A DNA stretch of 39,895 bases from a virus: IMG/VR virus record IMGVR_UViG_3300045988_079078. The stretch is one strand, 5' to 3'. Within the stretch, counting starts at the first letter, position 1; every line of letters begins with the position of its first letter. The notes beneath the pieces were generated by a model that had not been told where the DNA came from, made no database searches, and saw only the letters and a list, made by a program, of their open reading frames with translations. Shown here piece by piece: positions 4,608 to 22,931 of the stretch. The position numbers and the translations under genes are program-made.

Positions 4608-5024
4608 ATGGACGTATCTTATATAAAAATGTTGATGGAGCGTCAAAACATGACGCAAGCAAAGCTGTCAGAATTGACAGACATTCCGGCGACCACTTTG
4701 TCTAAGATTCTCAACGGTTCTACCGACAGCCCAGCTTTTGCCAACATCGCAGCCATCGTAAAGGTGCTGGGGGGCAGCCTTGATGTGATGGTCGGCATCG
4801 TATCAGACCCGGATGCAGCGCCAGTGCAGCAATCAGAGCGCCAGCTATATCAACAGCTGATTGCAGACAAAGAGCGCCAGCTGCGCAGCATAAACGGCAT
4901 AATGGAACAGAAACAGCAATGGTTGCGCAAGATGTGGCGTGCTCTTATGATTACCGTTGTTATACTCGGCATAATACTTGTTGCAGACATTTTCATCGGT
5001 TCTGTAGGTTTTATCCGATATTAA
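4608..5024 (+). CDS. Membrane-anchored XRE-family HTH protein
   Basis: The RBS AGGTGA lies 5 nt before ATG 4608. The HTH is MTQAKLSELTDIPATTLSKILNG, followed by a coiled-coil-like middle and the C-terminal TM ALMITVVILGIILVADIFIG. Confidence 0.7.
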   Translation: MDVSYIKMLMERQNMTQAKLSELTDIPATTLSKILNGSTDSPAFANIAAIVKVLGGSLDVMVGIVSDPDAAPVQQSERQLYQQLIADKERQLRSINGIMEQKQQWLRKMWRALMITVVILGIILVADIFIGSVGFIRY

Positions 5025-5070
5025 ACAAAAACGCCCCTGCCGGTGTTCGTACCACCGACAAGGGCAAAGA

Positions 5071-5105
5071 GCCGTCAACATAAAAAGTTGACGGCATTAT
5101 TATAA
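5071..5105 (+). terminator. Hairpin (9-bp perfect stem GCCGTCAAC/GTTGACGGC) followed by an AT-rich tail
   Basis: Read directly. It lies between the XRE-TM gene and the integrase. The T-tract is weak (ATTATTATAA). Confidence 0.4.
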
Positions 5106-5128
5106 CACACACACAAAGGAGCCGCAAT

Positions 5129-6214
5129 ATGAAAAGAACAAATACCGCAAAATGGATTGAATCTGCCCAGCGCTGGCAGATAAACGTGCAAAAAGACGGC
5201 GTGCGCAAAACCTTTACCAGCGCCAAACCGGGACGCACAGGCCAGCGGGAAGCGAACGCCAAGGCTGACGCATGGCTTGAAAAAGGCATTCAGAACCGCA
5301 AACAGACTGTTTCCGAAGCGTATGTCCAATACATGGCCCGCCAGATGAAGATTTCGTCCGAGGGGAACTGGAAGCCCTTGCAGGGGCGCTATAACAAGTG
5401 GATTGCCCCGCGCATCGGGGATATGCGCTTGACTTCCCTTACAGAGCAGGCAGTGCAGGACATATTGGATGATGCTTTTGCAGCAGGCCGCAGCAAGAAA
5501 ACAATCAAAAACATTGCGGGAGACCTGCGCAGCTTTTTCAAGTTCTGCCGCCGCTCTGGATGGACAACGTTTGATCCAGAGGAACTGCACGTTCCAGAGG
5601 GTGCGCGTTTCAAAGAGCGAACCATTTTACAGCCGACAGACATTATAACGCTTTTGAACATAGATACCACCATAAGCAGGGGGCACAGGGTATTTGACAA
5701 GTATATACATTATTATAGATTAGCTGTTTTTACAGGGATGCGCCCGGGTGAGCTTCTTGGCCTTGAGTGGGGAGACGTTGATGGTGGCGTTGCTCGGATA
5801 AAGCGCTCCGTAAACATATACGGAAAAGAATCAAGAGGAAAGAATGAAAACGCCCCTCGCGCAGTTATCCTTTCGGCTCGTTCGCTGGAAGAACTGAACG
5901 CGCAAAAAGAGTTGACTGGAATGTGTCAGCGCGTATTTCCGCAGGTAGAAGAACGGAACATTCGCCGCGCTTGGCAAAGATACTGCGCCGCAAACGGTAT
6001 TACATGCTGCACTCTGTACGAGTTGCGCCATACGTTTGTAAGCATTGCCGCCAATCTGCCAACAGGGCAGCTAAAACAGGTGATAGGGCACAGCCAGAAT
6101 ATGGATACATACGGCGTGTACGCGCATGCCATAAACGGACAGGATAAAGTAATAGCCGAGAACATAGAGGGCATCTTTGATGCAGCCATAGCAGCAGGAA
6201 AAAGTACACAGTGA
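5129..6214 (+). CDS. int: Tyrosine recombinase / phage integrase
   Basis: The C-terminal catalytic region has LYELRHTFVS and GHSQNMDTYGVYAH. The protein is 361 aa, has the RBS AAAGGAG and lies next to the att-like site. Confidence 0.9.
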   Translation: MKRTNTAKWIESAQRWQINVQKDGVRKTFTSAKPGRTGQREANAKADAWLEKGIQNRKQTVSEAYVQYMARQMKISSEGNWKPLQGRYNKWIAPRIGDMRLTSLTEQAVQDILDDAFAAGRSKKTIKNIAGDLRSFFKFCRRSGWTTFDPEELHVPEGARFKERTILQPTDIITLLNIDTTISRGHRVFDKYIHYYRLAVFTGMRPGELLGLEWGDVDGGVARIKRSVNIYGKESRGKNENAPRAVILSARSLEELNAQKELTGMCQRVFPQVEERNIRRAWQRYCAANGITCCTLYELRHTFVSIAANLPTGQLKQVIGHSQNMDTYGVYAHAINGQDKVIAENIEGIFDAAIAAGKSTQ

Positions 6215-6325
6215 AAGTACACACTTTTTATTCTCGGGCTGTATTTGGTATGGGGTCGATAATACCAACGGTACACACTTTTTGCGATAAGAAATGAATA
6301 TAATACCGTGCTTCGTGTAATAATC

Positions 6326-6352
6326 GGGGTTCGAGTCCCCCATCCTCCACCA
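6326..6352 (+). other. attP core candidate: 3' end of a tRNA/tmRNA-like gene (T-arm plus acceptor 3' strand plus ACCA)
   Basis: The sequence is GGGGTTCGAGTCCCCCATCCTCCACCA. It has a canonical TTCGAGT T-loop and ends in ...CTCCACCA, which would give a G3:U70-type acceptor as in tRNA-Ala or tmRNA. No 5' half is present. Confidence 0.6.
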
Positions 6353-6358
6353 CAAAAA

Positions 6359-6397
6359 ACGCCGTAGATACGTTAAAGTCTACGGCGTTTTCTTTTT
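6359..6397 (+). terminator. Rho-independent terminator immediately after the tRNA-like end
   Basis: The stem CGCCGTAGA/TCTACGGCG (6360-6368 / 6379-6387) is followed by TTTTCTTTTT. Confidence 0.75.
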
Positions 6398-6424: not shown

Positions 6425-6562
6425 CTATTTTTTAAGCAGATTGTGCAGCAGTTCTGCATACAATTCCGGTCGCGCTTCTTTCAGCGCATCCATAAACTCA
6501 TCCAGCACACGCCACACTCGCCCGGTATCGGCCTTTTTTACAATCTCCAAAAATTCACTCAT
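6425..6562 (-). CDS. 45-aa protein, paralogous to the C-terminus of the upstream 123-aa protein
   Basis: ATG 6562 overlaps the upstream stop by 8 nt. MSEFLEIVKKADTGRVWRVLDEFMDALKEARPELY aligns with SEFLRAVSNVDTTAALNVLDELMSALYVANPKVY. The ORF is below the ORF-track cutoff. Confidence 0.55.
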   Translation of the reverse strand: MSEFLEIVKKADTGRVWRVLDEFMDALKEARPELYAELLHNLLKK

Positions 6563-6926
6563 CCTGTAAACGCTCCAATTTCCGCATTACGCCATTATAA
6601 ACTTTAGGGTTTGCCACATACAAGGCCGACATAAGCTCATCCAGCACGTTCAGCGCCGCTGTGGTGTCTACGTTTGATACAGCCCGCAAAAATTCACTGC
6701 CACCAACAGCAGCCCTTGTAGACGGCTCTGCTGCTTCGTAGTAACGCACAGGCTCTTGCCGTTCTGCTTTTTGTGGGGAAGGGGATACATCTGCAAGCTG
6801 CTGATTTTTCACAACATACAGCGCCGCCAAATTTTTAACTCTGGTCATGGTAAGTTCGCTGTTTTCGATTTCGGCTATAGCGCCGTCAATCTCTCGCACG
6901 TCCACCATAGCCGCCACCTCCGTCAA
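6555..6926 (-). CDS. Hypothetical protein (123 aa)
   Basis: The ORF is coupled to its neighbours by ATGA-type overlaps and has a helical C-terminal domain shared with the 45-aa ORF. Confidence 0.6.
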   Translation of the reverse strand: MTEVAAMVDVREIDGAIAEIENSELTMTRVKNLAALYVVKNQQLADVSPSPQKAERQEPVRYYEAAEPSTRAAVGGSEFLRAVSNVDTTAALNVLDELMSALYVANPKVYNGVMRKLERLQDE

Positions 6927-7318
6927 ACGTTTTTCAGTTCATCAATGCAATGCTGGATAGTCTCGCGGTCGTATCCATTAACGTTTCGGATCATGTCTTC
7001 TAGCTTTCGCATCATGCTGTCTCGCGCATCGTCTCGGCTGTAATGGCCGCGCACATAATGCGACCCGCGCCGCGCGTAGCTGCTGCCGCGTCCATAATTG
7101 CCGCGCATGTTTGCGCTCCAATCGCCATCCCGGCTGTAATCTTCATCGCGGCTGTAACCACCATCTTCCAACATCGTGATTTTATCAATGTTCTTGATGG
7201 TGTCTGTCAGCTTGTGAACAGTTTCCAAGTCGCCAGCAGACATTTCGCCTTTTTTGCCGATTTCGTCAAGCTCTGCGCACAGCATGTCCTTCAAATCGTA
7301 CATAACTTTCATACTCAT
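6923..7318 (-). CDS. Hypothetical protein with a central R/S/Y/D/G-rich low-complexity region
   Basis: The central region is GGYSRDEDYSRDGDWSANMRGNYGRGSSYARRGSHYVRGHYSRDDARD, flanked by helical ends. Confidence 0.6.
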   Translation of the reverse strand: MSMKVMYDLKDMLCAELDEIGKKGEMSAGDLETVHKLTDTIKNIDKITMLEDGGYSRDEDYSRDGDWSANMRGNYGRGSSYARRGSHYVRGHYSRDDARDSMMRKLEDMIRNVNGYDRETIQHCIDELKNV

Positions 7319-7331
7319 AATAGCGCTCCTT

Positions 7332-7754
7332 TCAGCTCACTCTCTCAACCACAAAGTTTGCGTTCGCAAACGAAACGGTTTGTGTGCTTGTATTTTCGGC
7401 GGCAACGGTCAGGCAGCATCCGCGCGGAACTTCAACAAAAGCCGTGACGTAAATATTAAAATAGTTTTCTACTGCTGCCGGTGTCACGGTTGCAGTCGCA
7501 CTGTTCAACGGTTCACCATTGATGGCAAGCGCAGCAGTAATAGCTTCCACTGTGCCGCCGGTAGGGATAGCAATGTTTGCACCAAATCCCACTTTGAAAC
7601 GAGCTTTGCACTGGTTTGTAATGCCGCGCAGCGTAACAATACCGGCACCCTCTCTGTGTACGACACAGCCCTTACCCGCTACTGCCGTTTCGGTCAGGGG
7701 CACATTTTGCCCAGCGGCCACAGTCACAGCGTTGGCGTTGGTAAACTCAGCCAT
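7332..7754 (-). CDS. Beta-sandwich protein resembling a BclA C-terminal / C1q-TNF-like domain (140 aa)
   Basis: The RBS GGAGGGGAAAG lies before ATG 7754. It shows an alternating beta pattern (...IVTLRG..ARFKVGFGANIA..LAINGEPL..FVEVPRGCCLTV..ANFVVERV). The family call is from memory only. Confidence 0.45.
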   Translation of the reverse strand: MAEFTNANAVTVAAGQNVPLTETAVAGKGCVVHREGAGIVTLRGITNQCKARFKVGFGANIAIPTGGTVEAITAALAINGEPLNSATATVTPAAVENYFNIYVTAFVEVPRGCCLTVAAENTSTQTVSFANANFVVERVS

Positions 7755-7947
7755 TACTTTCCCCTCCATCCGTAAATTTATAGCCGAAATTTTCAGCAAA
7801 TTTTTGCCATGTATAAAGTTCTTCCATGCTGCGCACATTTTTCGCAATCTCGGAGTATATTAAAATTTCTTCCATTTTTAACGCTGAAAGGTCGATTTTG
7901 GCCAAATGCTCGCAAATTTTATTTTTGAGGTCTTTTGATTCTATCAT
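7747..7947 (-). CDS. Hypothetical protein (66 aa)
   Basis: RBS is AAAGGA. The gene overlaps the next gene by 8 nt. Confidence 0.55.
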   Translation of the reverse strand: MIESKDLKNKICEHLAKIDLSALKMEEILIYSEIAKNVRSMEELYTWQKFAENFGYKFTDGGESNG

Positions 7948-7963
7948 AAAGCAGTCCTTTCAT

Positions 7964-8004
7964 AAAAAGATAGCGGCGGGACGATTGCCCCGCCGCTTTG
8001 TTTG
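7964..8004. terminator. Bidirectional intrinsic terminator between the 252-aa gene and the 66-aa gene
   Basis: The 9-bp GC stem AGCGGCGGG/CCCGCCGCT (7972-7980 / 7989-7997) has T-tracts on both sides. Confidence 0.7.
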
Positions 8005-8061
8005 GAAAATCGGCACGGGGCCGAACATGTCAGATGTTCCGACAAGTTGCCGTATTCGGTT

Positions 8062-8820
8062 TTAGCAGGCGCAGCCGTTGCAGGTGCCGCAATTCCCATA
8101 CTGATACGGTGCGGGAACAGGGAAAGCAGGAACAGGGCGGGGGTTGTAGTAAGCAAGCTGCCCACTCATATAGGCTTTCAGCGTTTCATTCTGCGCAGCC
8201 TGACTTGCGGCAAGCTGTGCGGCAAAAATCTGCTGGTTCTGCTCGGCAATCTTGGCATCCTTTGCTTCAATCCGCTGTGCAGTAAGCGCATCAAGCACCG
8301 CACGCGCATTGGCGTTCTGGTTCTCAATGATGTCTCGAGTGCCGTTCTGAATGGTCTGGCGCGTGTCGCAAGCCTGCGTAGCAAGGTTGTAGTTAACGCC
8401 CTGAATCGCTTCGCGGGTTTCGCAGCAGCAATTTGCCTGCTGCATCTGCATCGCGTTAAGCTGCTGCATAAATGCGGCCTGCTGATTGGCGCGGCTGATT
8501 TCAGCCGACATAAAGCCCTGCTGCATAGCGTTCTGCACGCCGTTGACAAGCTGTGCCTGAGCATAGAAGCCGTCACACAGGCCGTTGTTTACGTTGTCAA
8601 TCTTGCGTTCGATGTTGGCAAAGTCACTGGTAAGGACGTATCCATCCATAACGCCAGCACCATTGCCGTTGTTGCCGCCCCAACCGTTGCGGCCCCAGCC
8701 AAACAGGAACAGGACGATAATCCAAATCCAGTCCTGCCCCCACATGCCCATGCCGCCATTGTAATTATTGGCGGGCTGTACCGGCATTGTCATAACAGTG
8801 CCGTCCGAAGATAAGCTCAT
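8062..8820 (-). CDS. Membrane-anchored Q/N-rich, Cys-rich protein (252 aa)
   Basis: RBS is GAAGGGAG. It has a G/W-rich TM region (GMWGQDWIWIIVLFLFGWGRNGWGGNNGNG), conserved-looking Cys motifs (GLCDGFY, NCCCETRE, ATQACDTR) and the C-terminus GNCGTCNGCAC. Confidence 0.7.
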   Translation of the reverse strand: MSLSSDGTVMTMPVQPANNYNGGMGMWGQDWIWIIVLFLFGWGRNGWGGNNGNGAGVMDGYVLTSDFANIERKIDNVNNGLCDGFYAQAQLVNGVQNAMQQGFMSAEISRANQQAAFMQQLNAMQMQQANCCCETREAIQGVNYNLATQACDTRQTIQNGTRDIIENQNANARAVLDALTAQRIEAKDAKIAEQNQQIFAAQLAASQAAQNETLKAYMSGQLAYYNPRPVPAFPVPAPYQYGNCGTCNGCAC

Positions 8821-8868
8821 ATTTTTACTCCCTTCAAATAAATTTTATTGTCTAACCGTGCGCACGGA

Positions 8869-9093
8869 TTAAACCTGTCCCATAAACGACCTAAACTGCT
8901 GCGCCATCGCTTGCAGTTGGTTCAACTGAGCTTGGCTCATCTGCCCGGATTGCAACAGCTTTTCTACTTCTTTTTTGGGGTCTCCCTGAAAATTTGCCCG
9001 GAACTGCTGAAACTGCTGCATCATCTGCTGAAATTGTCCCATCGGGCCGGGCATACGACCGCCGCCTAAAGCATTAAACAGTGGATTTGGCAT
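8869..9093 (-). CDS. Q-rich small protein (74 aa)
   Basis: RBS is AAGGAGAG. The sequence contains MPNPLFNALGGGRMPGPMGQFQQMMQQFQQFRANFQGDPKKEVEKLLQSGQMSQAQLNQL... Confidence 0.6.
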   Translation of the reverse strand: MPNPLFNALGGGRMPGPMGQFQQMMQQFQQFRANFQGDPKKEVEKLLQSGQMSQAQLNQLQAMAQQFRSFMGQV

Positions 9094-9535
9094 TTTCGCT
9101 CTCCTTTTTCTTTGTCAGCGGTTTATCTGCCGCCAGCGCGTCAAAGCGTGCCGCCAGCGCGTCAAACTCTGCACGGGTGACAAACTCTCCGGCTTGCGTT
9201 TGCGCGGCCTGTGTGGGCTGTTTCTGTGCCGCTGTGCGCTCTGCATAATCGAAGATGCGCAACGGCTGCGGCATCCCGCTTGCGTCCACTGTTTTGATAT
9301 AGAACGAGCTTTTCTCGCTATCCATCAAAAGTACGCTGTTTCCTGGCGCACAAAGGTAACTTTTTGCCGCTTCTTCTCCCTGCACCCAAATAATAGGCGC
9401 AGTCTGCTGTGCAGTCTGTTGCTGCGGATACGCTGCCTGTCGAAGCTGTGCAAGCTGGTCAGGCATTGCAGTGGGCTGCCCCATCGGGTAATATCCCGGC
9501 GCAAATCCGGGCTGATACGGTACGCCAAACGCCAT
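9074..9535 (-). CDS. Hypothetical protein with a P/Q-rich N-terminus and a globular core (about 153 aa)
   Basis: ATG 9535 is preceded by AAAGGA; the ORF track offers a TTG start at 9541. The core reads IIWVQGEEAAKSYLCAPGNSVLLMDSEKSSFYIKTVDASGMPQPLRIFDY. Confidence 0.6.
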   Translation of the reverse strand: MAFGVPYQPGFAPGYYPMGQPTAMPDQLAQLRQAAYPQQQTAQQTAPIIWVQGEEAAKSYLCAPGNSVLLMDSEKSSFYIKTVDASGMPQPLRIFDYAERTAAQKQPTQAAQTQAGEFVTRAEFDALAARFDALAADKPLTKKKESENAKSTV

Positions 9536-9541
9536 AGTCAA

Positions 9542-9919
9542 TCATCCTTTCTGCCAGTAGTACAGCGGCACTTCATCTCCGCTGTCCCATGTATCCAGCC
9601 AATCCCCATTCTGCACGCACACAACATGCGTAGCCATAGCCAAAATGTACGTGCCGTCCTGGTGGTCTTTTGCAAACTGCGCTACTGTGTAACAATCCGG
9701 GCAACTGTTTGGCAGCGTGTAACGCTTCCAACCACATCGCCGCAAATAGCTGCCCCAAACATAGTTTGCAGACGGCATATCATGCAGTTCAAATCCTGCC
9801 AACACCAGCGCCGCATATACAGCCGCCCACGATTGATGCGTTGCGGCTGCAATGGCTCTGACGGTACAATCGCCAACGCGCTTTTGCTCTGGGTTTAGGT
9901 TGATTTGCCTGTATGCCAT
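9542..9919 (-). CDS. Putative papain/C39-like cysteine peptidase-fold protein (125 aa)
   Basis: RBS is AAGGAAAAAGGAG. A candidate Cys-His dyad is present (VGDCTVRAI ... AMATHVVCV). Confidence 0.4.
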   Translation of the reverse strand: MAYRQINLNPEQKRVGDCTVRAIAAATHQSWAAVYAALVLAGFELHDMPSANYVWGSYLRRCGWKRYTLPNSCPDCYTVAQFAKDHQDGTYILAMATHVVCVQNGDWLDTWDSGDEVPLYYWQKG

Positions 9920-9945
9920 CTTCACCGCTCCTTTTTCCTTAATTG

Positions 9946-10001
9946 TACAAAAAAAGACGGCGCAACGTAGGCCAGTAAAGTGCCAACATTGTGCCGTCTT
10001 T
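9946..10001 (-). terminator. Intrinsic terminator (13-bp stem with 1 mismatch) followed by a U-tract
   Basis: The minus-strand RNA reads AAAGACGGCACAA...TTGCGCCGTCTTTTTTTG. It ends about 25 nt before the RBS of gene 9919. Confidence 0.65.
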
Positions 10002-10004
10002 GGG

Positions 10005-10043
10005 ACAAAATAAAAAAGGCGCGACCACAAAAGCAGCCGCGCC
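10005..10043 (-). terminator. Intrinsic terminator directly after the 54-aa HTH gene
   Basis: The minus-strand RNA reads GGCGCG-loop-CGCGCC followed by TTTTTTATTTTG. Confidence 0.6.
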
Positions 10044-10050
10044 CATTAAA

Positions 10051-10215
10051 TCAGCCTATTTTGTTTTTGATGCTGTGTACGCGCCGTTTTACCGTGCGTT
10101 CGCTGCAATTCAGTTCTGCCGCAATATCAGCATTGCGCCAGCCGCGCCGCCGAAGCTGCAAAACATCCGTTTCTTCATCGGTCAGCAAACCGCCGACAAA
10201 ATCAAACTTTGGCAT
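10051..10215 (-). CDS. 54-aa LuxR / sigma-70 region-4-like HTH protein
   Basis: The translation is MPKFDFVGGLLTDEETDVLQLRRRGWRNADIAAELNCSERTVKRRVHSIKNKIG. The ORF is below the ORF-track cutoff and starts 2 nt after the holin stop. Confidence 0.6.
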   Translation of the reverse strand: MPKFDFVGGLLTDEETDVLQLRRRGWRNADIAAELNCSERTVKRRVHSIKNKIG

Positions 10216-10217
10216 GA

Positions 10218-10412
10218 TTACTCATCCTTCTTGTTCTTGCTTTCGGTCTGCGTGCCAAAATAAAAGGCCACGACCATTGTCACAATGGTCATGACCGTGT
10301 CCGGCTGCAATTTGCTCTGCAGCGCCAGCACCGCAAAAACCGCAACTACAACCAGCGTTACAATGGTTTTTACCTTGATAAGCGCTGCCAGATTCTTGAT
10401 AAAATCGTTCAT
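10218..10412 (-). CDS. Holin (two TM helices, charged C-terminus)
   Basis: It has IVTLVVVAVFAVLAL and VMTIVTMVVAFYFG followed by the tail TESKNKKDE. It lies in the lysis cassette. Confidence 0.7.
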   Translation of the reverse strand: MNDFIKNLAALIKVKTIVTLVVVAVFAVLALQSKLQPDTVMTIVTMVVAFYFGTQTESKNKKDE

Positions 10413-10429
10413 ACAATATGCACCCTCTT

Positions 10430-10783
10430 TCAGCCAATCAGATGCTTCTGCAAGGCTTCCTTTGCTTTCTGCATCTGGTCAATGTTGTTTCCGTCAAGGT
10501 TGTGGTCAAGCAGGGCAAGCAGCGCCTGCATGGTCACGTGCTGCCCCTCATCCATGCGGTCAAGCCGCAATTTGTCGTTTTTCAAAAAGCCCTCCATAGC
10601 GTTCACCCGCGCTTCAAGCTTTGTAATGCGTTCATCCTGGTCTGTCTTTGGCTTTTTCACCGCGGTAATCACTTTGCTGATAGCCACGCCCCCGGCATAC
10701 AGCCCGGCAGCAGCCCCCGCCGCGTAAATCAAAAACGCCCAGGCTTCCGCAATCGTAAACGAAAATACGTGCTGCATCGGCAT
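10430..10783 (-). CDS. N-terminally membrane-anchored coiled-coil protein (lysis-associated, XhlA-like role possible)
   Basis: The RBS GGAGGTG lies before ATG 10783, which overlaps the endolysin stop (TGATG). The TM AWAFLIYAAGAAAGLYAGGVAI is followed by a coiled coil. Confidence 0.6.
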   Translation of the reverse strand: MPMQHVFSFTIAEAWAFLIYAAGAAAGLYAGGVAISKVITAVKKPKTDQDERITKLEARVNAMEGFLKNDKLRLDRMDEGQHVTMQALLALLDHNLDGNNIDQMQKAKEALQKHLIG

Positions 10784-12051
10784 CACACCTCCGCCCATTC
10801 GCTTTTATACAGCCCGGCATCCGTCAGGCCGCGTTCCTTGCACAGCAAGTAGATTGCATCTGCATCGCCCTGTGAGACCGGCCCTACCGTAATGACCTGT
10901 AACTTGCTTGCAGGCTTGTCCACTGCAGGCAGGGTCTTAACTAAATGGTTAAGGTCAACCACGCCGGTGATACCTGCGACGCTGCCCTGCCCGTATTGGT
11001 GGATGTATCGCGGCAGCGTCTTGTCGTAATTTGTACGCGTGTCGGCAAGCCAGCCGATGTAATCTTCACACAAGTAGGCGTAGTCGATGTTCGCGCTTGC
11101 AAAGGCCGTGAATGTGTAAATACCTGCCGTGAATCCGTGCGTCTTGGCTCTCTCACAAAACACCATTGCGATTGCCGTTCGCTGGTCTTTCGTCAGGTTG
11201 TCTGCTCGGCCATCGTGTGTGCCGGTCTCGGTCGTGTGCCCCCATTCGCTGTCAAAAAACAGCGGGTAGCCAGCCGGTGCAAGGCTTGCACAAAAGTCTG
11301 CCTCCTCGCGGGCTTCGTCCACCGTGATGGCCTGCGAGAAAAAGTAAAAGCCGAACAGCTTTCCGCTTGCTTTTGCCCCTGCAAGGTTAGCATCGTACTG
11401 ATCGTCTTTCATAAGCTTTCCGCTGCCGTAGCCGCGATAGCCAATGCGAACAATGGCGCGGTAGGGAACACTCGCCCAGTCGATAGCGCCCTGGTGGTGG
11501 GATACATCAATCAGCACTTCCTCACTGTTGGGCTGTGCAGCATCCGCAGGCTTTTCCACAGCATGTTCTCCGGCGCGGTATGTAAACACCTGCCCACTTG
11601 CCGTAGTGAAGTCGCTGTCAAGCCACACCAGCGGGTTGGTGCGCTTGCCGTTCAGGATAACTTCAAAGTGCAGATGCGCACCAAACACATTCCCGGTCAC
11701 GCCAGAATAGCCGATAAGTTCGCCCTCTTTGACCTTCTGCCCAACCTTGACGCAATAGCTGCTCAGGTGCGCGTACCGCGTCTGTAAAGTCTTTCCCTTG
11801 TAGGGGTCATGCTTGATGCGCACCATGTTGCCATAGCTCTGCATCCCGGTTTTTGTGTGGCCGTCCCAGTCCTGCACCTGGTCAACCGTGCCGTCCTCTG
11901 CCGCGTAGACCGGGCGCTTGTAGTCCGTGCCGTTCTGCGTGCGCCAGTCGGCGGCCTGATGCAAGCTGCCGTCGTTGTAGTACCAGCCCTGCGTTAAAAC
12001 GTGCAGGTCAAGCGGCCAGTGCAGCAGAACCTCACCGTTTGAAAGTCTCAT
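10783..12051 (-). CDS. Bifunctional endolysin: M23 peptidase plus GH25 muramidase plus a small C-terminal domain
   Basis: M23 motifs are HQAAD and GAHLHFEV. GH25 motifs are IDVSHHQGAIDW and FFDSEWGH. Confidence 0.85.
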   Translation of the reverse strand: MRLSNGEVLLHWPLDLHVLTQGWYYNDGSLHQAADWRTQNGTDYKRPVYAAEDGTVDQVQDWDGHTKTGMQSYGNMVRIKHDPYKGKTLQTRYAHLSSYCVKVGQKVKEGELIGYSGVTGNVFGAHLHFEVILNGKRTNPLVWLDSDFTTASGQVFTYRAGEHAVEKPADAAQPNSEEVLIDVSHHQGAIDWASVPYRAIVRIGYRGYGSGKLMKDDQYDANLAGAKASGKLFGFYFFSQAITVDEAREEADFCASLAPAGYPLFFDSEWGHTTETGTHDGRADNLTKDQRTAIAMVFCERAKTHGFTAGIYTFTAFASANIDYAYLCEDYIGWLADTRTNYDKTLPRYIHQYGQGSVAGITGVVDLNHLVKTLPAVDKPASKLQVITVGPVSQGDADAIYLLCKERGLTDAGLYKSEWAEV

Positions 12052-12093: not shown

Positions 12094-14754
12094 TTAGTTA
12101 ATCATGAAATATTTCATGATTTCCCTTGCATTGTATTTTGCAATCTTCTTTGCACCGTTTTCGTTTGTATGAATACCGTCAAGCAAATCAGTCTGAATTG
12201 GTGCAACACCAGATTGTTCAGGATGGTCATAATCGATCGTTGTTTGGCTTTCGTAGATGTTTCGGATTCCGCATCTGCGAGTGTCGATTGTTTCTGCTCC
12301 AAGCCTATCGGCAACAAAATTGATGAAATCACCTTTCTGGTAAATGCTATCGAAAGTTTCATAACATTCTTGGGTTGGCGTACACATAAATATCACGGCA
12401 TTCGGATAAGCCTCATGCAACTTCTGAAATCCATACCGCATAGAACCTGCCAATGTCTGACGATTTACGTTATCAATAGGCACAACAGTAAAGTTGTTCT
12501 GAGCGTAATTCGTGATAAACTGGTTCTCTACACTTTCTTTTGTCTGCACAGAGAAATCAACAGAATCATTTGTTCCAAACGAAAATGTAATAACATCAAA
12601 GTCCTGATAATCTGCATCACCATTTGATTTTGCGTTTAGCACTTTCTGTACTTGATTTCCCATTACATTGCCATCCGTAGATGGCTGTGGATTTCCGTCA
12701 TAGGTTTGATTAGCAACCTTATCTTGCCATGTAGAACCCGCAACGGACACATTCACAACCTTGTCAGCAAGGAGATACTGTTTAATCCAATGCGTCCATC
12801 CGTTTACACCGCCCATAGCGGTGATACTATCTCCAAGTGTAAGAATCTTTAATCCTTTCCACTTTGGAATAATTGAACTCGGCAATGCAGATTCAGTTAC
12901 TGTAACATAAAGCTCTCCATACGGAGTAAATTTAGTAATTCCATATTGCTCGATTTTCAAAGTGTTAAGAGTATCTCCAAGACCTCCATTTTTAGAGAAT
13001 CTCAAATAATACGCACCATCGGGAACTGTTAATACGGTAGGTTCATTGTTTATGCCATACAAATATTTTTTATCTGCATCAAAATATGCTCCGGTACTTG
13101 CAACACCGATAGGGAGTTCATTACTGCTGAAATAGAGAACCATTCCCGGTTTTACAGGAATGTAATCACTTGAATCCCATGATGAAAAGGAAGTATCAAA
13201 GTAGCCGCTATCTGATAACACAGCACCTTTTACAACAGCATTTTTGTTAAAAAGGTTTGAATGGTCTTCCTGTATTTTTACAACTTCGGCTTTGACTTCG
13301 CTTACTTCGGCTTTGACTTTGCTTACTTCGGCTTTGACTTTGCTTACTTCGGCTTTGACTTTAACCTCACCATATGGAACATATGTGGTTCTCAAACCGT
13401 TTTCAATCTGCAACTTTTCTTTTTTTGAATCGAAAGAAAATCTTGCGTACCCATCAGATGTGACTGCTATATTATTATTATTATTAGGGTTGCCAAATCC
13501 ACTTATAAACTTCTTTTGAGCGTCATAAAAAGCGCCTGTGCTGTAATAGGTTGGTTCATTGTTTGCGCTAAAATAGAGTACATCTCCTTTAGATACTGGG
13601 ATATAGTCTGTAGCTTCCCATCCGCTAAATCCGTTCATTTCGCTGCCATCACCAGAACTTATAGCCACATTTGCTTTTGCCGCTGCCGGATTAAAAAGAT
13701 TAGGAGAAATGATGTTACCTAAATCTTCCTTTAGCTGACTAACTGCCTCCTTGTTCTCGGAAATTTGTGCCATAGAATCCTTGATGCTGTTGACAGTGTT
13801 GTCGGCATCTGCCGCGCTCTTTTTGGCCGCCGCCGCGCTATCAGCAGCGCTGTTCTCGGATTTTGCTGCTTTTTTCTCACTGGCCGCTGCTGCTGTGGCT
13901 GATTTTGCCGCAGCATCGGCATAGCCACTTGCGGCATCTTTTGCTGCGTCAGCATCTTGCAGGGCGTTTTCCGAGCCCGTTTTTGCTTCAAGCGCCTTTT
14001 TTGCTGCGTCCTCTGCACTCTGCTTGGCAGTTTCAGCCGCATTTGCACTCTGTGCGGCCTCGCCAGCAGCTTGTCCAGCGACACCCGCTGCATTAGCGGC
14101 TGTCTGAGCAGCATTTTCGGCGCTGCCCTGTGCGGTCTGAGCTGCTTTGGCGCTCTCGTTAGCCGCGTTGGCAGAGGATTCAGCCGCCTCTGCCTTGCCA
14201 GCCGCGCTCTCGCTGGATGCTGCCGCGTCCTCGGCACTCTTCTTGGCTGCCGCTGCACTTGCAGCAGCGCCGCCCGCTCCCTCGCCCGCCTTTTTGGCCG
14301 CATCCTCAGCGGCTTGGCGGGCGTTCTCGGCGGCGTCTTGCGCCGCAGTGGCAATGCTGACGGCATTGTTCGAGTTGGCAAGAATCTGCTGCACAACATC
14401 CGGCGTCGGCGTGCCGGGGTTGTCTCCCTCGATGTCAGAGTGCGGCTTGATATTGTATCCAATATCCACAGTAATGCGCTGCACGTTTTCCGCAAGACCG
14501 ACAAAAACAATTCTGCCGACGCCTGCCTGCTTCGCCGTAGCTTCCGGCGGTACGGCAAGCATACCGTCTGCCCCAACAACAACCTTTGTCGCAGTCCCGT
14601 CCGGCGCGTGGAATACAGCCAGAATGTCCAGCCCATCCCAACTGTCATCTGCCGTCACATGCAGCTGCTCGATACCGTAACTGTCAAAAGTGCCAAGTGA
14701 TAAGTTGCCGGGTCTAACACTATATCCTTTCAGCTGTACTTCATGCAATGCCAT
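12094..14754 (-). CDS. Tail fibre / receptor-binding protein with an Ala-rich coiled coil, two duplicated beta-sandwich modules and a C-terminal SGNH/GDSL esterase
   Basis: SGNH blocks are LTLGDSITAMGG, FSFGTNDS and DGIHTNENG. The internal duplication is NLFN..DYIPV..VLYFS..STGA(F/Y)(Y/F)DA.KK... Confidence 0.8.
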   Translation of the reverse strand: MALHEVQLKGYSVRPGNLSLGTFDSYGIEQLHVTADDSWDGLDILAVFHAPDGTATKVVVGADGMLAVPPEATAKQAGVGRIVFVGLAENVQRITVDIGYNIKPHSDIEGDNPGTPTPDVVQQILANSNNAVSIATAAQDAAENARQAAEDAAKKAGEGAGGAAASAAAAKKSAEDAAASSESAAGKAEAAESSANAANESAKAAQTAQGSAENAAQTAANAAGVAGQAAGEAAQSANAAETAKQSAEDAAKKALEAKTGSENALQDADAAKDAASGYADAAAKSATAAAASEKKAAKSENSAADSAAAAKKSAADADNTVNSIKDSMAQISENKEAVSQLKEDLGNIISPNLFNPAAAKANVAISSGDGSEMNGFSGWEATDYIPVSKGDVLYFSANNEPTYYSTGAFYDAQKKFISGFGNPNNNNNIAVTSDGYARFSFDSKKEKLQIENGLRTTYVPYGEVKVKAEVSKVKAEVSKVKAEVSEVKAEVVKIQEDHSNLFNKNAVVKGAVLSDSGYFDTSFSSWDSSDYIPVKPGMVLYFSSNELPIGVASTGAYFDADKKYLYGINNEPTVLTVPDGAYYLRFSKNGGLGDTLNTLKIEQYGITKFTPYGELYVTVTESALPSSIIPKWKGLKILTLGDSITAMGGVNGWTHWIKQYLLADKVVNVSVAGSTWQDKVANQTYDGNPQPSTDGNVMGNQVQKVLNAKSNGDADYQDFDVITFSFGTNDSVDFSVQTKESVENQFITNYAQNNFTVVPIDNVNRQTLAGSMRYGFQKLHEAYPNAVIFMCTPTQECYETFDSIYQKGDFINFVADRLGAETIDTRRCGIRNIYESQTTIDYDHPEQSGVAPIQTDLLDGIHTNENGAKKIAKYNAREIMKYFMIN
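13284..13367. repeat. 21-nt tandem repeat (about 4 units) encoding VKAEVSK heptads
   Basis: The unit CTTCGGCTTTGACTT(C/T)GCTTA is repeated. The translation is KVKAEVSKVKAEVSKVKAEVSEVKAEV. Confidence 0.9.
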
Positions 14755-21664: not shown

Positions 21665-22338
21665 TTAGCCGCCCTCTGTTTGGGCGACTTTTTTCTCTGC
21701 TTCTTTCAATCCATGCCGCGCCGCAAAGTCTTTGAAATCCGCCTGCACCTGTTCTGGTGTCCGCGTATCCACTTTGGGCGGGTGAATAATGTCAATATAT
21801 CTCGCTGGCCTGTCCTTTACGCCTGTAACAGCTACCACAAGGCTCCACGCACTGTCTGTCATGTATACCTTGTACATCTGCTCTTCAAAATCAGCTTTTA
21901 AAGCGTAAGGCAGCGCCGACACAAGCGCCTTTGCGCTCAGTTTCGGCATTTTCAGCAGTACAGGGATTACTTGTTCTGCCCGCCACCGAGATACGATTTG
22001 AAAAAATCAACAAAGCCCTTATCGTTCACCAGGACGTAAACTTGCTTGCAGGTGATAAGGAAATTCTGTTTGCCGATTTCTTCCACTGTCAGTCCGTTAA
22101 ACGGTGCAAGGATTGCGTATACATCCTCGCGGTGCTGCTTCAACGCAATGTTCAGCAGCTTAACGATTTTTGCAAGGCCGAAACGCTGCATTGCAATGCG
22201 GGTCGTTTCGCCCTTCGGCATCGCTTTCTGCATCTCTTTCACAAGTGCTTCATCGTCAATAAGGTTTGTGATGGGCTGCGCGATTTGCAAAACGACTTCC
22301 AGCGCTTCATCAGTGCTAAGTTCAGAAAAAATCCGCAT
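21665..22338 (-). CDS. Tail assembly chaperone G-T fusion made by a -1 programmed frameshift
   Basis: The -1 frame is open from the slippery site into ORF 21665-21949. Confidence 0.7.
21967..22338 (-). CDS. Tail assembly chaperone (gpG-like)
   Basis: It lies between the major tail and tape measure genes and contains a slippery heptamer near its 3' end. Confidence 0.75.
   Translation of the reverse strand: MRIFSELSTDEALEVVLQIAQPITNLIDDEALVKEMQKAMPKGETTRIAMQRFGLAKIVKLLNIALKQHREDVYAILAPFNGLTVEEIGKQNFLITCKQVYVLVNDKGFVDFFKSYLGGGQNK
22000..22006 (-). promoter_or_regulatory. -1 ribosomal frameshift heptamer T_TTT_TTC
   Basis: The zero-frame codons are GAT TTT TTC AAA. The site fits the X_XXY_YYZ rule. 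Confidence 0.7.
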
Positions 22339-22931
22339 TAGGCTTCATCCTCTCCTGCTTTGATATACACCTCGCACGGCACAGTGTCCTGCGCGGTGAT
22401 GGAGTAGTGCGCCGTGTATTCGAAGCTCATCTGGCCTTTTTCCTTGTCTCCCGTCTGCAAGCTGAAACCGCCGGTGGACAGCGTATTCAGCATGTGAATG
22501 GCACAGAAACCGCCGTTCGTAGTGCCGTGCTTGTCCGAATAATCGCACAGCAGCCACAAATCGGTAAAGTCGCTGTCTTTCAGGTCGTTGCGTGGCGTGA
22601 TTTTGGAAACCTTGGAAGTGGTCGTAACATCCGCAGCGCCAAGCATGCTCTTGGCATTTTCTGCCGATGCCGAAACATAAGTGCCGCTGCACTTGACTTC
22701 CCACGATTCAATCTGCTTCAGCTCTTTCATGTTCTTGGGGCAGTTGTCGATATCCTCGCCGAAGTCGGTAAAGCTCGGCACAGCCGTAAAGTTGATGCCG
22801 CCGGTCGTAGCGCCCAGCAGCGCACTTTCTTCCGGCGCCGTACCGGCAGCCGGGTCAAACGTAGTTGCAAGATAACCAGCGTTCAAGACCAGTTCCTTAA
22901 ACGCAGATTCAGGAATACGAGTAAATTTCAT
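22338..22931 (-). CDS. Major tail protein
   Basis: It is 197 aa and sits upstream of the chaperones. The sequence is beta-rich. Confidence 0.75.
   Translation of the reverse strand: MKFTRIPESAFKELVLNAGYLATTFDPAAGTAPEESALLGATTGGINFTAVPSFTDFGEDIDNCPKNMKELKQIESWEVKCSGTYVSASAENAKSMLGAADVTTTSKVSKITPRNDLKDSDFTDLWLLCDYSDKHGTTNGGFCAIHMLNTLSTGGFSLQTGDKEKGQMSFEYTAHYSITAQDTVPCEVYIKAGEDEA

Follow-up and report, generated by a model that had tools for sequence, protein, structure and literature searches.

Sequence comparison provides robust support for a seven-gene operon that appears to be autonomous, regulated and horizontally mobile among phages of Clostridia. The operon was delineated in IMG/VR virus record IMGVR_UViG_3300045988_079078, a stretch of 39,895 nucleotides (nt) that we refer to, as a whole, as the window and in which all coordinates are given unless another locus is named. 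There, nine open reading frames (ORFs), denoted g1 to g9 in the order of transcription, are co-oriented on the minus strand and tightly packed from the lysis cassette to the phage attachment site (attP); seven of them make up the conserved core. The carriers are siphophages of gut and rumen Clostridia, from the Oscillospiraceae and Lachnospiraceae, the hosts being, presumably, monoderm. Literature searches found no published account of the block, which belongs to no known system and is a phage accessory operon of the moron-like kind. Our favored explanation, to which we assign a probability of about 0.35, is that it is a late-lytic accessory operon, distinct from the virion genes, the canonical lysis genes and a spore coat, switched on by a helix-turn-helix (HTH) protein, the products of which would build a membrane-tethered assembly in the cytoplasm.

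A colinear gene unit on unrelated phage backbones

The block ORFs are real genes because the ratios of nonsynonymous to synonymous substitution rates (dN/dS) against relatives show purifying selection on every ORF that has nucleotide homologues, with values from 0.06 to 0.35. These are 0.09 for g1 (9542-9919; 125 amino acids (aa)), 0.08 for g2 (9074-9535; 153 aa), 0.08 for g3 (8869-9093; 74 aa), 0.06 for g4 (8062-8820; 252 aa), 0.07 for g6 (7332-7754; 140 aa), 0.08 for g7 (6923-7318; 131 aa), 0.23 for g8 (6555-6926; 123 aa) and 0.35 for g9 (6425-6562; 45 aa), the last of which overlaps the stop codon of g8. For g5 (7747-7947; 66 aa), no nucleotide homologue was found, and protein homologues fill the same slot in other loci. 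The start codon of g8 is more likely the ATG at 6908, which sits behind GGAGGTG and yields a protein of 117 rather than 123 aa. An earlier, sequence-only reading of the window had described nine co-oriented, tightly coupled minus-strand genes between the lysis genes and attP, and the ORFs are found where it had placed them.

We compared 15 loci from GTDB genomes, 80 loci from IMG/VR and several GenBank phages, labelled L001 onwards. Across more than 100 loci, the order g1-g2-g3-g4-g6-g7(-g8) is invariant, such that the conserved core consists of seven strictly colinear genes, g1 to g4 and g6 to g8, with g8 kept after g7 in most lineages. Thus, the set does behave as a unit, as the sequence-only reading had supposed, but the unit comprises seven genes instead of nine because g5 is optional and g9 is lineage-specific. 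Specifically, g5 is an accessory gene in a variable slot, missing from most close relatives of the window and represented by distant homologues in the same slot of L007, L014/L015 and L100-L103, and g9 is found only in the close relatives of the window, in 'g8-g8' architectures.

The families are very large. At 90% identity, g6, g4 and g1 each form about 8000 clusters or more (at least 7998 for g4 and at least 7884 for g6); at 50% identity, 595 clusters of g6 are obtained, nearly all of them being proteins of some 140 aa that stand alone. A single g4 sequence recurs, unchanged, on 663 contigs, and the window's own type of g6 is matched by at least 599 stretches in IMG/VR. The core is present in thousands of gut phage and prophage contigs and in no fewer than five unrelated backbones. 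When distant g6 sequences were used to query IMG/VR, almost nothing was returned, and diversity was instead drawn from GTDB genomes, INPHARED and look-ups of exact proteins.

The setting of the block differs among these backbones, which were compared over 14-21 kb around each block. In the lineage of the window, the block follows the lysis genes, and the whole virion module is held in common with Butyrivibrio phage Ceridwen, at 21-46% identity. In L100-L103, phages that encode a CHAP lysin as well as a giant MuF polyvalent protein, the block represents the last phage genes before the host genes. It lies between the lysis genes and the integrase in Dulem virus 33 (L001); after the holin, the lysin, a DUF7365 protein and an HTH protein of the sigma region 4 type in bajarodcaudo virus 5 (L018); within the head operon, between the gene for minor capsid protein 2 and the scaffold gene, in Dulem virus 35; convergent with the tail/late operon in L111; and ahead of a Rep3 replication gene and a resolvase gene in L108. 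Within these 14-21 kb, the only proteins that L100, Dulem virus 33, Dulem virus 35 and bajarodcaudo virus 5 have in common with the phage in the window are those of the block. Furthermore, g6 of L100 is 77% identical to that of the window without any shared virion genes, whereas g6 of Ceridwen is only 45% identical despite the shared virion module: the similarity of the block tracks the host clade, not the backbone. Ceridwen is a cultured phage that forms plaques on Butyrivibrio fibrisolvens (DSM 3071) and carries the full block. It lacks an integrase, and only a lytic cycle has been seen (PMC7372960).

These observations bear on the possibility that the block products are virion accessories, i.e., decoration proteins of the head or tail, ejection proteins (g4, through a segment that would insert into membranes) or, in the case of a g6 trimer, the tip of a fibre, all of which would be synthesized late and added to the particles. 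Phage fibre tips and spikes often carry TNF/C1q-like knobs, examples being the phi812 spike and the A-1(L) fibre, and a virion role would fit both the position of the block in Dulem virus 35, where it is flanked by the minor capsid protein gene on one side and by those for the scaffold and major capsid proteins on the other, and its retention by a lytic phage. However, the structural modules that the block accompanies are unrelated to one another, and block similarity goes with the host, not with the virion genes. Moreover, g6 has neither a stalk nor an attachment domain, and no other block member is as conserved, whereas a receptor-binding tip would be expected to vary; terminators insulate the block, which has a promoter of its own; and no block protein matches a structurally annotated PHROG. 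A virion role is, therefore, improbable.

Several local rearrangements were also observed. Endonuclease-like genes are inserted between g6 and g7 in Ceridwen (L107, 24928-25722) and, on the opposite strand, between g3 and g4 in Dulem virus 33 (7751-8302); the block tolerates selfish insertions at its gene junctions. An optional ORF of about 45-68 aa, 'g0', is present in L001, L003, L095, L099 and L107 (Ceridwen, 22288-22494) and not in the window; because it overlaps the start of g1, the two appear to be translationally coupled. L054 yields two matches to g4 (~8380-10000, 'g4-g4'), the second copy seemingly starting after the stop codon of the first. In L108, a plasmid-type Rep3 replication initiator and a resolvase are encoded directly after the block (4982-6141), and this element may be a phage-plasmid.

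Regulatory elements around and within the block

The gene immediately preceding the block, on the minus strand (10051-10215), encodes an HTH protein of 54 aa that Pfam assigns to the sigma-70 region 4/GerE-LuxR type (GerE, 4e-10; Sigma70_r4_2, 7e-7). It starts 2 nt past the holin stop codon and has a dN/dS of 0.03. In no fewer than 10 lineages, among them Ceridwen, L018, L099, L100 and L108, g1 is directly preceded by a small HTH gene, the type of which is confirmed by Pfam for the window and L018 and judged by reading the sequence in the others; across lineages, this gene abuts or overlaps the holin gene. Dulem virus 35 has no HTH gene upstream of the block. Like GerE and other minimal LuxR or sigma region 4 regulators, the 54-aa protein consists of little beyond the HTH domain, and in PADLOC it matches generic CARF-HTH models; unlike GerE, it is coupled to a phage holin gene, and its target is deduced only from adjacency and from phased repeats upstream of g1. 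On these grounds, the HTH protein is probably the regulator of the block.

The HTH gene is followed by an intrinsic terminator on the minus strand (10017-10044; a 12-bp stem with 8 GC pairs and a T-run), which closes the late/lysis operon; a hairpin with a T-run is found at this position in most lineages. Between this terminator and g1 lies a regulatory region (minus strand, 9920-10001) that contains a second hairpin, the inverted repeat 9946-10001 (GACGGCACAA...TTGCGCCGTC) with a T-run. The 5′ arm and loop of this hairpin bear 11-nt phased repeats (ACGGCAC/TTGGCAC/CTGGCC), downstream of which are a conserved TACAAT/TATAAT box, about 22 nt before the ATG of g1, and an AAGGAG ribosome-binding site. 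No -35 hexamer is found at the proper spacing from the TACAAT box. Other lineages have different phased repeats at the same place together with the same -10-like box, as in L040, where GTTGGCGTAAA is repeated three times (~7890-8005). The comparison suggests that the phased repeats are a putative operator, probably that of the adjacent mini-HTH protein. A sigma-54 reading of TGGCAC-N5-TGGC upstream of g1 was rejected, the -12 element being unconserved among lineages.

Two arrangements argue that the block is transcribed from a promoter of its own. In L040, a close relative of the window, two opposite-strand genes (6957-7818; 192 and 119 aa, neither with a Pfam match), absent from the window, separate the HTH gene from g1, so that g1 needs its own promoter; at least 10 IMG/VR relatives have an upstream region of this type (L039-L043, L049, L054, L062, L081 and L089). 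In L111, the block and the late operon converge, which likewise calls for an independent promoter. The sequence-only reading had seen no obvious promoter, a statement that the conserved box and the divergent or convergent neighbors overturn; it fared better with the terminators, of which the hairpins 10044-10017 and 7997-7972 were recovered by a scan and the inverted repeat 10001-9946 is visible in the sequence. In L008, L010 and L014-L016, the ribosome-binding site and start codon of g1 are enclosed in a hairpin (AAGCCCATAC...GGTATGGGCTT), which suggests translational control of g1 in these loci.

A second site of putative control is the spacer between g4 and g6 (minus strand, 7962-8061), which is predicted to form a structured RNA of three hairpins, with a minimum free energy of -45.2 kcal/mol (z = -4.5). 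The first hairpin is variable in sequence. The second (TCGGC-loop-GCCGA) shows compensatory changes, one pair being GC in 14 sequences, AU in 8 and CG in 1, and the third is a GC-rich terminator (7997-7972) that abuts the next ribosome-binding site and likewise combines its stem and T-run with compensatory changes. Among 61 unique spacers, the terminator hairpin was found in 54 and hairpin 2 in 56, and the structure persists where the flanking proteins are only 35-60% identical. An RNA of this kind follows the g4 stop codon also in L001-L019, L036, L074, L088, L093 and L095; no Rfam family matches these intergenic RNAs. In its 5′ half, hairpin 2 carries GCCCCG, the complement of CGGGGC in the 5′ arm of the terminator, and the two co-vary in L095 (ACCCCG/CGGGGT), such that alternative pairing could constitute an antiterminator switch.

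At its other end, the block is closed by a bidirectional terminator (6356-6391; 14-bp stem) located just before the attP region, beyond which a tyrosine integrase is encoded on the opposite strand (5129-6214). The minus strand at 6320-6350 reads GGGGACTCGAACCCC...CCACCA, resembling the 3′ end of a tRNA gene; ARAGORN detects no complete tRNA at this place. Many IMG/VR provirus contigs stop about 1008 nt beyond the g6 stop codon, i.e., at about position 6324, beside this stretch, which is probably the attP core in a tRNA gene. Upstream of the HTH gene, the lysis cassette consists of a holin-like protein of 64 aa (10218-10412), a DUF7365 protein (10430-10798) that combines a coiled-coil with a hydrophobic segment at its N-terminus, and an endolysin that joins Peptidase_M23 to GH25 (10783-12051). 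Just upstream of the lysis genes is the gene for an 886-aa protein (12094-14754) with a C-terminal GDSL lipase/esterase domain.

The location of the block evokes phage morons, which are autonomous promoter-gene-terminator cassettes usually found between the lysis genes and att. Under this explanation, the block would be a lysogenic-conversion module, expressed in the prophage from its own promoter and altering the membrane or envelope, e.g., for superinfection exclusion, with the late HTH protein acting as a repressor or modulator. The block resembles morons in its position at the extreme end of the prophage, between the lysis genes and attP/integrase, in the terminators on both sides, in a promoter region of its own, in lying in either orientation relative to the late genes, and in its portability between backbones with similarity tracking the host clade; the membrane anchor predicted for g4 also fits. 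It differs from morons in comprising seven genes in one operon, with a regulator gene dedicated to it and, inside it, an RNA resembling an attenuator, and in occurring also in a head operon and in an integrase-less lytic phage. Late-lytic timing is favored over lysogenic conversion because the presumed regulator is co-expressed with the holin; because the promoter, with a -10 box and no -35 box, looks activator-dependent; because Ceridwen, with no integrase, keeps the block, under purifying selection; and because the sole case without the HTH gene, Dulem virus 35, has the block inside the late head operon. In addition, six of the seven core proteins have no route to the surface, and there is no match to the defense systems in PADLOC. 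Lysogenic conversion is, thus, rather unlikely.

Folds, motifs and compositions of the block proteins

The AlphaFold2 model of g6 (predicted local distance difference test (pLDDT) score of 97.5) confirms the resemblance to the BclA C-terminal domain (CTD) and C1q/TNF domains that had been noticed from the sequence: g6 is predicted to be a jelly-roll beta-sandwich of the TNF/C1q/BclA-CTD type. In Foldseek searches of the PDB, the best matches are F-BclA, BclA, ExsFA/BxpB and EDA, with template modelling (TM) scores of 0.66-0.75 and E values of 1.7e-6 to 1e-5. The whole 140-aa protein falls within the jelly roll, with no collagen-like GXY stalk. There is no match at E ≤ 0.1 to the curated C1q, TNF or BclA C-terminal families of Pfam and NCBIfam, and no sequence match in the PDB. 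In BFVD, the TNF-like fold is frequent among phage proteins, and the best viral matches of g6 are stand-alone proteins of gut phages, 130-143 aa in length. Thus, g6 shares with ExsFA/BxpB and BclA-CTD the same jelly roll and, with ExsFA/BxpB, the organization as a stand-alone domain of about 140-170 aa that has no signal peptide and is made in the cytoplasm, but it differs from both in showing no detectable sequence relationship, in lacking the collagen-like stalk, in being phage-encoded and in having named hosts that do not sporulate.

This last point weighs on the analogy with spore-coat or exosporium proteins drawn in the sequence-only reading, under which the phage would supply proteins of this kind and the spore surface of the host would be remodelled. 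What speaks for it is that the closest solved structures of g6 (BclA-CTD, F-BclA and ExsFA/BxpB) are exosporium proteins, that the neighboring regulator matches the Pfam GerE family and that the partners are Cys-rich and Q-rich. Yet none of the proteins matches a coat or exosporium family in Pfam or NCBIfam (including ExsY/CotY, CotE, GerQ and Cde), the Pfam GerE model is a generic LuxR-type HTH, and the TNF-like fold is widespread in phages. Alignment of g2 with an unverified sequence of Bacillus subtilis GerQ gave an hhalign probability of 0.06%, and a GerQ-like identity of g2 was rejected. As for the hosts, the block occurs in a phage of Butyrivibrio fibrisolvens, a non-sporulating species, and one g6 cluster is assigned to prophages of Gemmiger formicilis by the source's own name. 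G. formicilis is described as non-spore-forming (PMC11724591). The spore-coat proposal is, therefore, very unlikely and largely refuted by host range.

In g1, Cys18, His98 and Asp109 are invariant in 43 sequences; an additional CPxC motif is likewise invariant. In the AlphaFold2 model (pLDDT 93.9), Cys18 forms the N-terminus of a helix (18-27), His98 lies just before a strand (99-103), and Asp109 ends the next strand (106-109). The top Foldseek matches are all papain-like (Josephin, AvrPphB, Tae4 and TssM) and all non-significant (E 0.2-1.5), the best being a weak one to Josephin-2 (E 0.22; TM 0.45). Accordingly, the sequence-only description of g1 as papain/C39-like, based on the motif GDC...ATHVV, which is indeed present, holds for the papain-type arrangement of Cys, His and Asp and not for C39: g1 has no Pfam match to Peptidase_C39 or Peptidase_C39_2. 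The model points to a minimal papain-like enzyme topology with invariant Cys, His and Asp. Like the papain-like peptidases (C39, Tae4/NlpC-P60, Josephin and AvrPphB), g1 would have its Cys at a helix N-terminus and its His and Asp on or beside adjacent strands; it departs from them in the extra CPxC motif, in the missing C39 profile match and in its gene neighborhood, which contains no ATP-binding cassette (ABC) transporter or exporter gene in or near the block in the loci examined and no double-glycine substrate near g1. Comparison with the C39_2-type lysin of bajarodcaudo virus 5, of which g1 might have represented the catalytic domain, gave an hhalign probability of only 6.6%, and the idea of g1 as an accessory endolysin was dropped. 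A possibility is that g1 is a transglutaminase acting on the Q-rich partners.

Homologues of g1 also occur without the rest of the block in Geobacillus phage GBK2 and in Tsamsa-like Bacillus phages, where they lie among small early genes; some of the homologues are annotated as 'putative peptidase', and one database source names a homologue 'putative papain-like endopeptidase'. This distribution, along with the dependence of block similarity on host clade, could suggest a host-takeover or anti-defense module in which g1 is a protease acting on a host protein and the other products are regulators or decoys. However, neither the holin-coupled regulator nor the location of the block, at the extreme end of the late region, fits early takeover. 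The same explanation leaves the six other conserved proteins, low-complexity or structural, unaccounted for, and there is no match to a known anti-defense or defense family. We consider it quite improbable.

The only hydrophobic segment in the block belongs to g4, which the sequence-only reading had described as membrane-anchored, and none of the block proteins has a signal peptide or an N-terminal hydrophobic signal segment. The g4 protein starts with a conserved acidic tail (MSLSSDG..MTMPV.P) essentially without Lys or Arg, followed by a short hydrophobic segment flanked by W and G, a Q/N-rich region containing an invariant CCC motif, and a C-terminus rich in Cys; the motifs CDGFY, CCCE, QACD and GNCGTCNGCAC that had been singled out in it are all present. 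From its sequence, g4 is predicted to be a membrane anchor, the charge distribution weakly favoring an N-out/C-in topology. In the N-terminal membrane segment, the conserved cysteines, the proximity to lysis genes and a Q/N-rich region that looks helical by eye, g4 is reminiscent of the i-spanin Rz, a Cys-linked protein with an N-terminal TM segment and a coiled-coil body. By contrast with Rz, it has no lipoprotein partner and no sequence similarity, its body is predicted to be cytoplasmic, and the hosts are monoderm.

The remaining core proteins, g2, g3, g7 and g8, join short conserved segments to low-complexity regions and have no detectable relatives with known function. Residue counts bear out the compositions previously assigned to them, with 23% Q in g3, 11% Q and 8.5% P in g2 and, for comparison, 11% Q, 11% N and 3.6% C in g4. 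In alignments, g2 shows a P/Q/Y-rich N-terminus, then a small conserved central domain (WV.GE...D.SG.P...D..ER), a C-terminal helix and a K-rich tail, and g7 shows an R/S/Y/G/D-rich low-complexity core between conserved N- and C-terminal segments. GXY repeats are absent from all block proteins. The alignment of g9 with the C-terminus of g8 (42% identity) agrees with the earlier proposal that the two are paralogous and indicates that g9 is a local duplicate of the C-terminal domain of g8; g7 and g8 were compared as potential paralogues, and this relationship was rejected.

Scans of all nine proteins against Pfam, NCBIfam and PADLOC gave noise only, PADLOC yielding no significant match to the block and one marginal match of g3 (E 0.003). 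Sequence and profile searches of the PDB with g6, g1 and g2 found nothing, g2 has no PDB or Pfam match, and g8 has no database matches. Six of the nine proteins match PHROGs, all of them families without known function: g1, phrog_3754 (2e-28); g2, phrog_21718 (1e-31); g3, phrog_22984 (3e-21); g4, phrog_16490 (1e-49); g6, phrog_20016 (5e-58); and g7, phrog_28802 (3e-10). The sequence-only reading had set these proteins apart from classical phage functions, a distinction that homology to virion or lysis proteins, or a gene set not conserved as a unit, would undo. Both were looked for: searches of Pfam, PHROG and NCBIfam revealed no homology of any of the proteins to known virion or lysis families, and the set is conserved as a unit, so that the distinction stands.

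A possible role at the end of infection

Starting from the reality, conservation and portability of the genes, the folds of g6 and g1 and the regulatory anatomy, we infer the timing of expression, the activator role of the HTH protein, the topology, the binding partners and the cellular effect of the favored late-lytic operon as follows. The small HTH protein would be produced alongside the holin, from the last part of the late operon, bind the 11-nt repeats before g1 and switch on the -10-only promoter, giving rise to a 'very late' lytic transcription unit, within which the internal hairpins and terminator may set or gate the ratio of g1-g4 to g6-g8. Given that no export signal is present in any of the products, they would remain cytoplasmic, which, together with the predicted g4 anchor, makes a membrane-tethered cytoplasmic assembly the simplest reading. 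Such an assembly would form on the inner face of the membrane, with g4 as the anchor. The g6 protein, as a TNF-like trimer, might serve as a docking adaptor, by analogy with the ExsFA/BxpB trimers, and could dock the peptide tails of its partners, with g2, g3, g7 and g8 as the low-complexity partners. These partners, or a host target, would be processed by g1, acting as a cysteine peptidase or as a related enzyme of acyl transfer. As infection ends, the output would affect the host cell or its envelope.

Several points weigh against this explanation. The position of the block beside attP, bracketed by terminators, is the classical site of a moron, i.e., of lysogenic conversion, and if the HTH protein were a repressor, the timing would be reversed. 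The structural matches of g1 to papain-like enzymes are those non-significant ones given above, and the topology of g4 depends on a weak charge bias. Finally, the GGCAC-N6-GGCAC pair among the putative operator repeats occurs once in the window against 0.26 occurrences expected by chance, so that its weight comes only from the cross-lineage comparison.

A bolder and improbable variant of the same scheme is that phages of non-sporulating Clostridia have reused an exosporium-like construction to end the lytic cycle. In this variant, a very-late operon controlled by a mini sigma region 4/GerE activator and an RNA attenuator would give rise, in the infected cell, to a new kind of membrane-tethered assembly, for which it would supply a Cys-rich and Q/N-rich membrane anchor, an ExsFA/BclA-like trimer adaptor, a matrix rich in Q and P and in R, G and Y, and a papain-like enzyme for processing or cross-linking.

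The interest of the block lies in its widespread families, its unusual regulatory anatomy and the availability of a culturable test system. The seven families are among the most widespread uncharacterized genes of human-gut Firmicutes phages, and they travel together, as one regulated unit, across unrelated phages. The three-hairpin RNA and the pairing of a mini-HTH protein with phased repeats are regulatory elements new to description. Because the whole block is present in Ceridwen, which is cultured on Butyrivibrio fibrisolvens DSM 3071, the function of the block can be tested directly. Any function assigned to the unit would annotate thousands of phage genomes at once and could reveal a new late-infection process in Clostridia.

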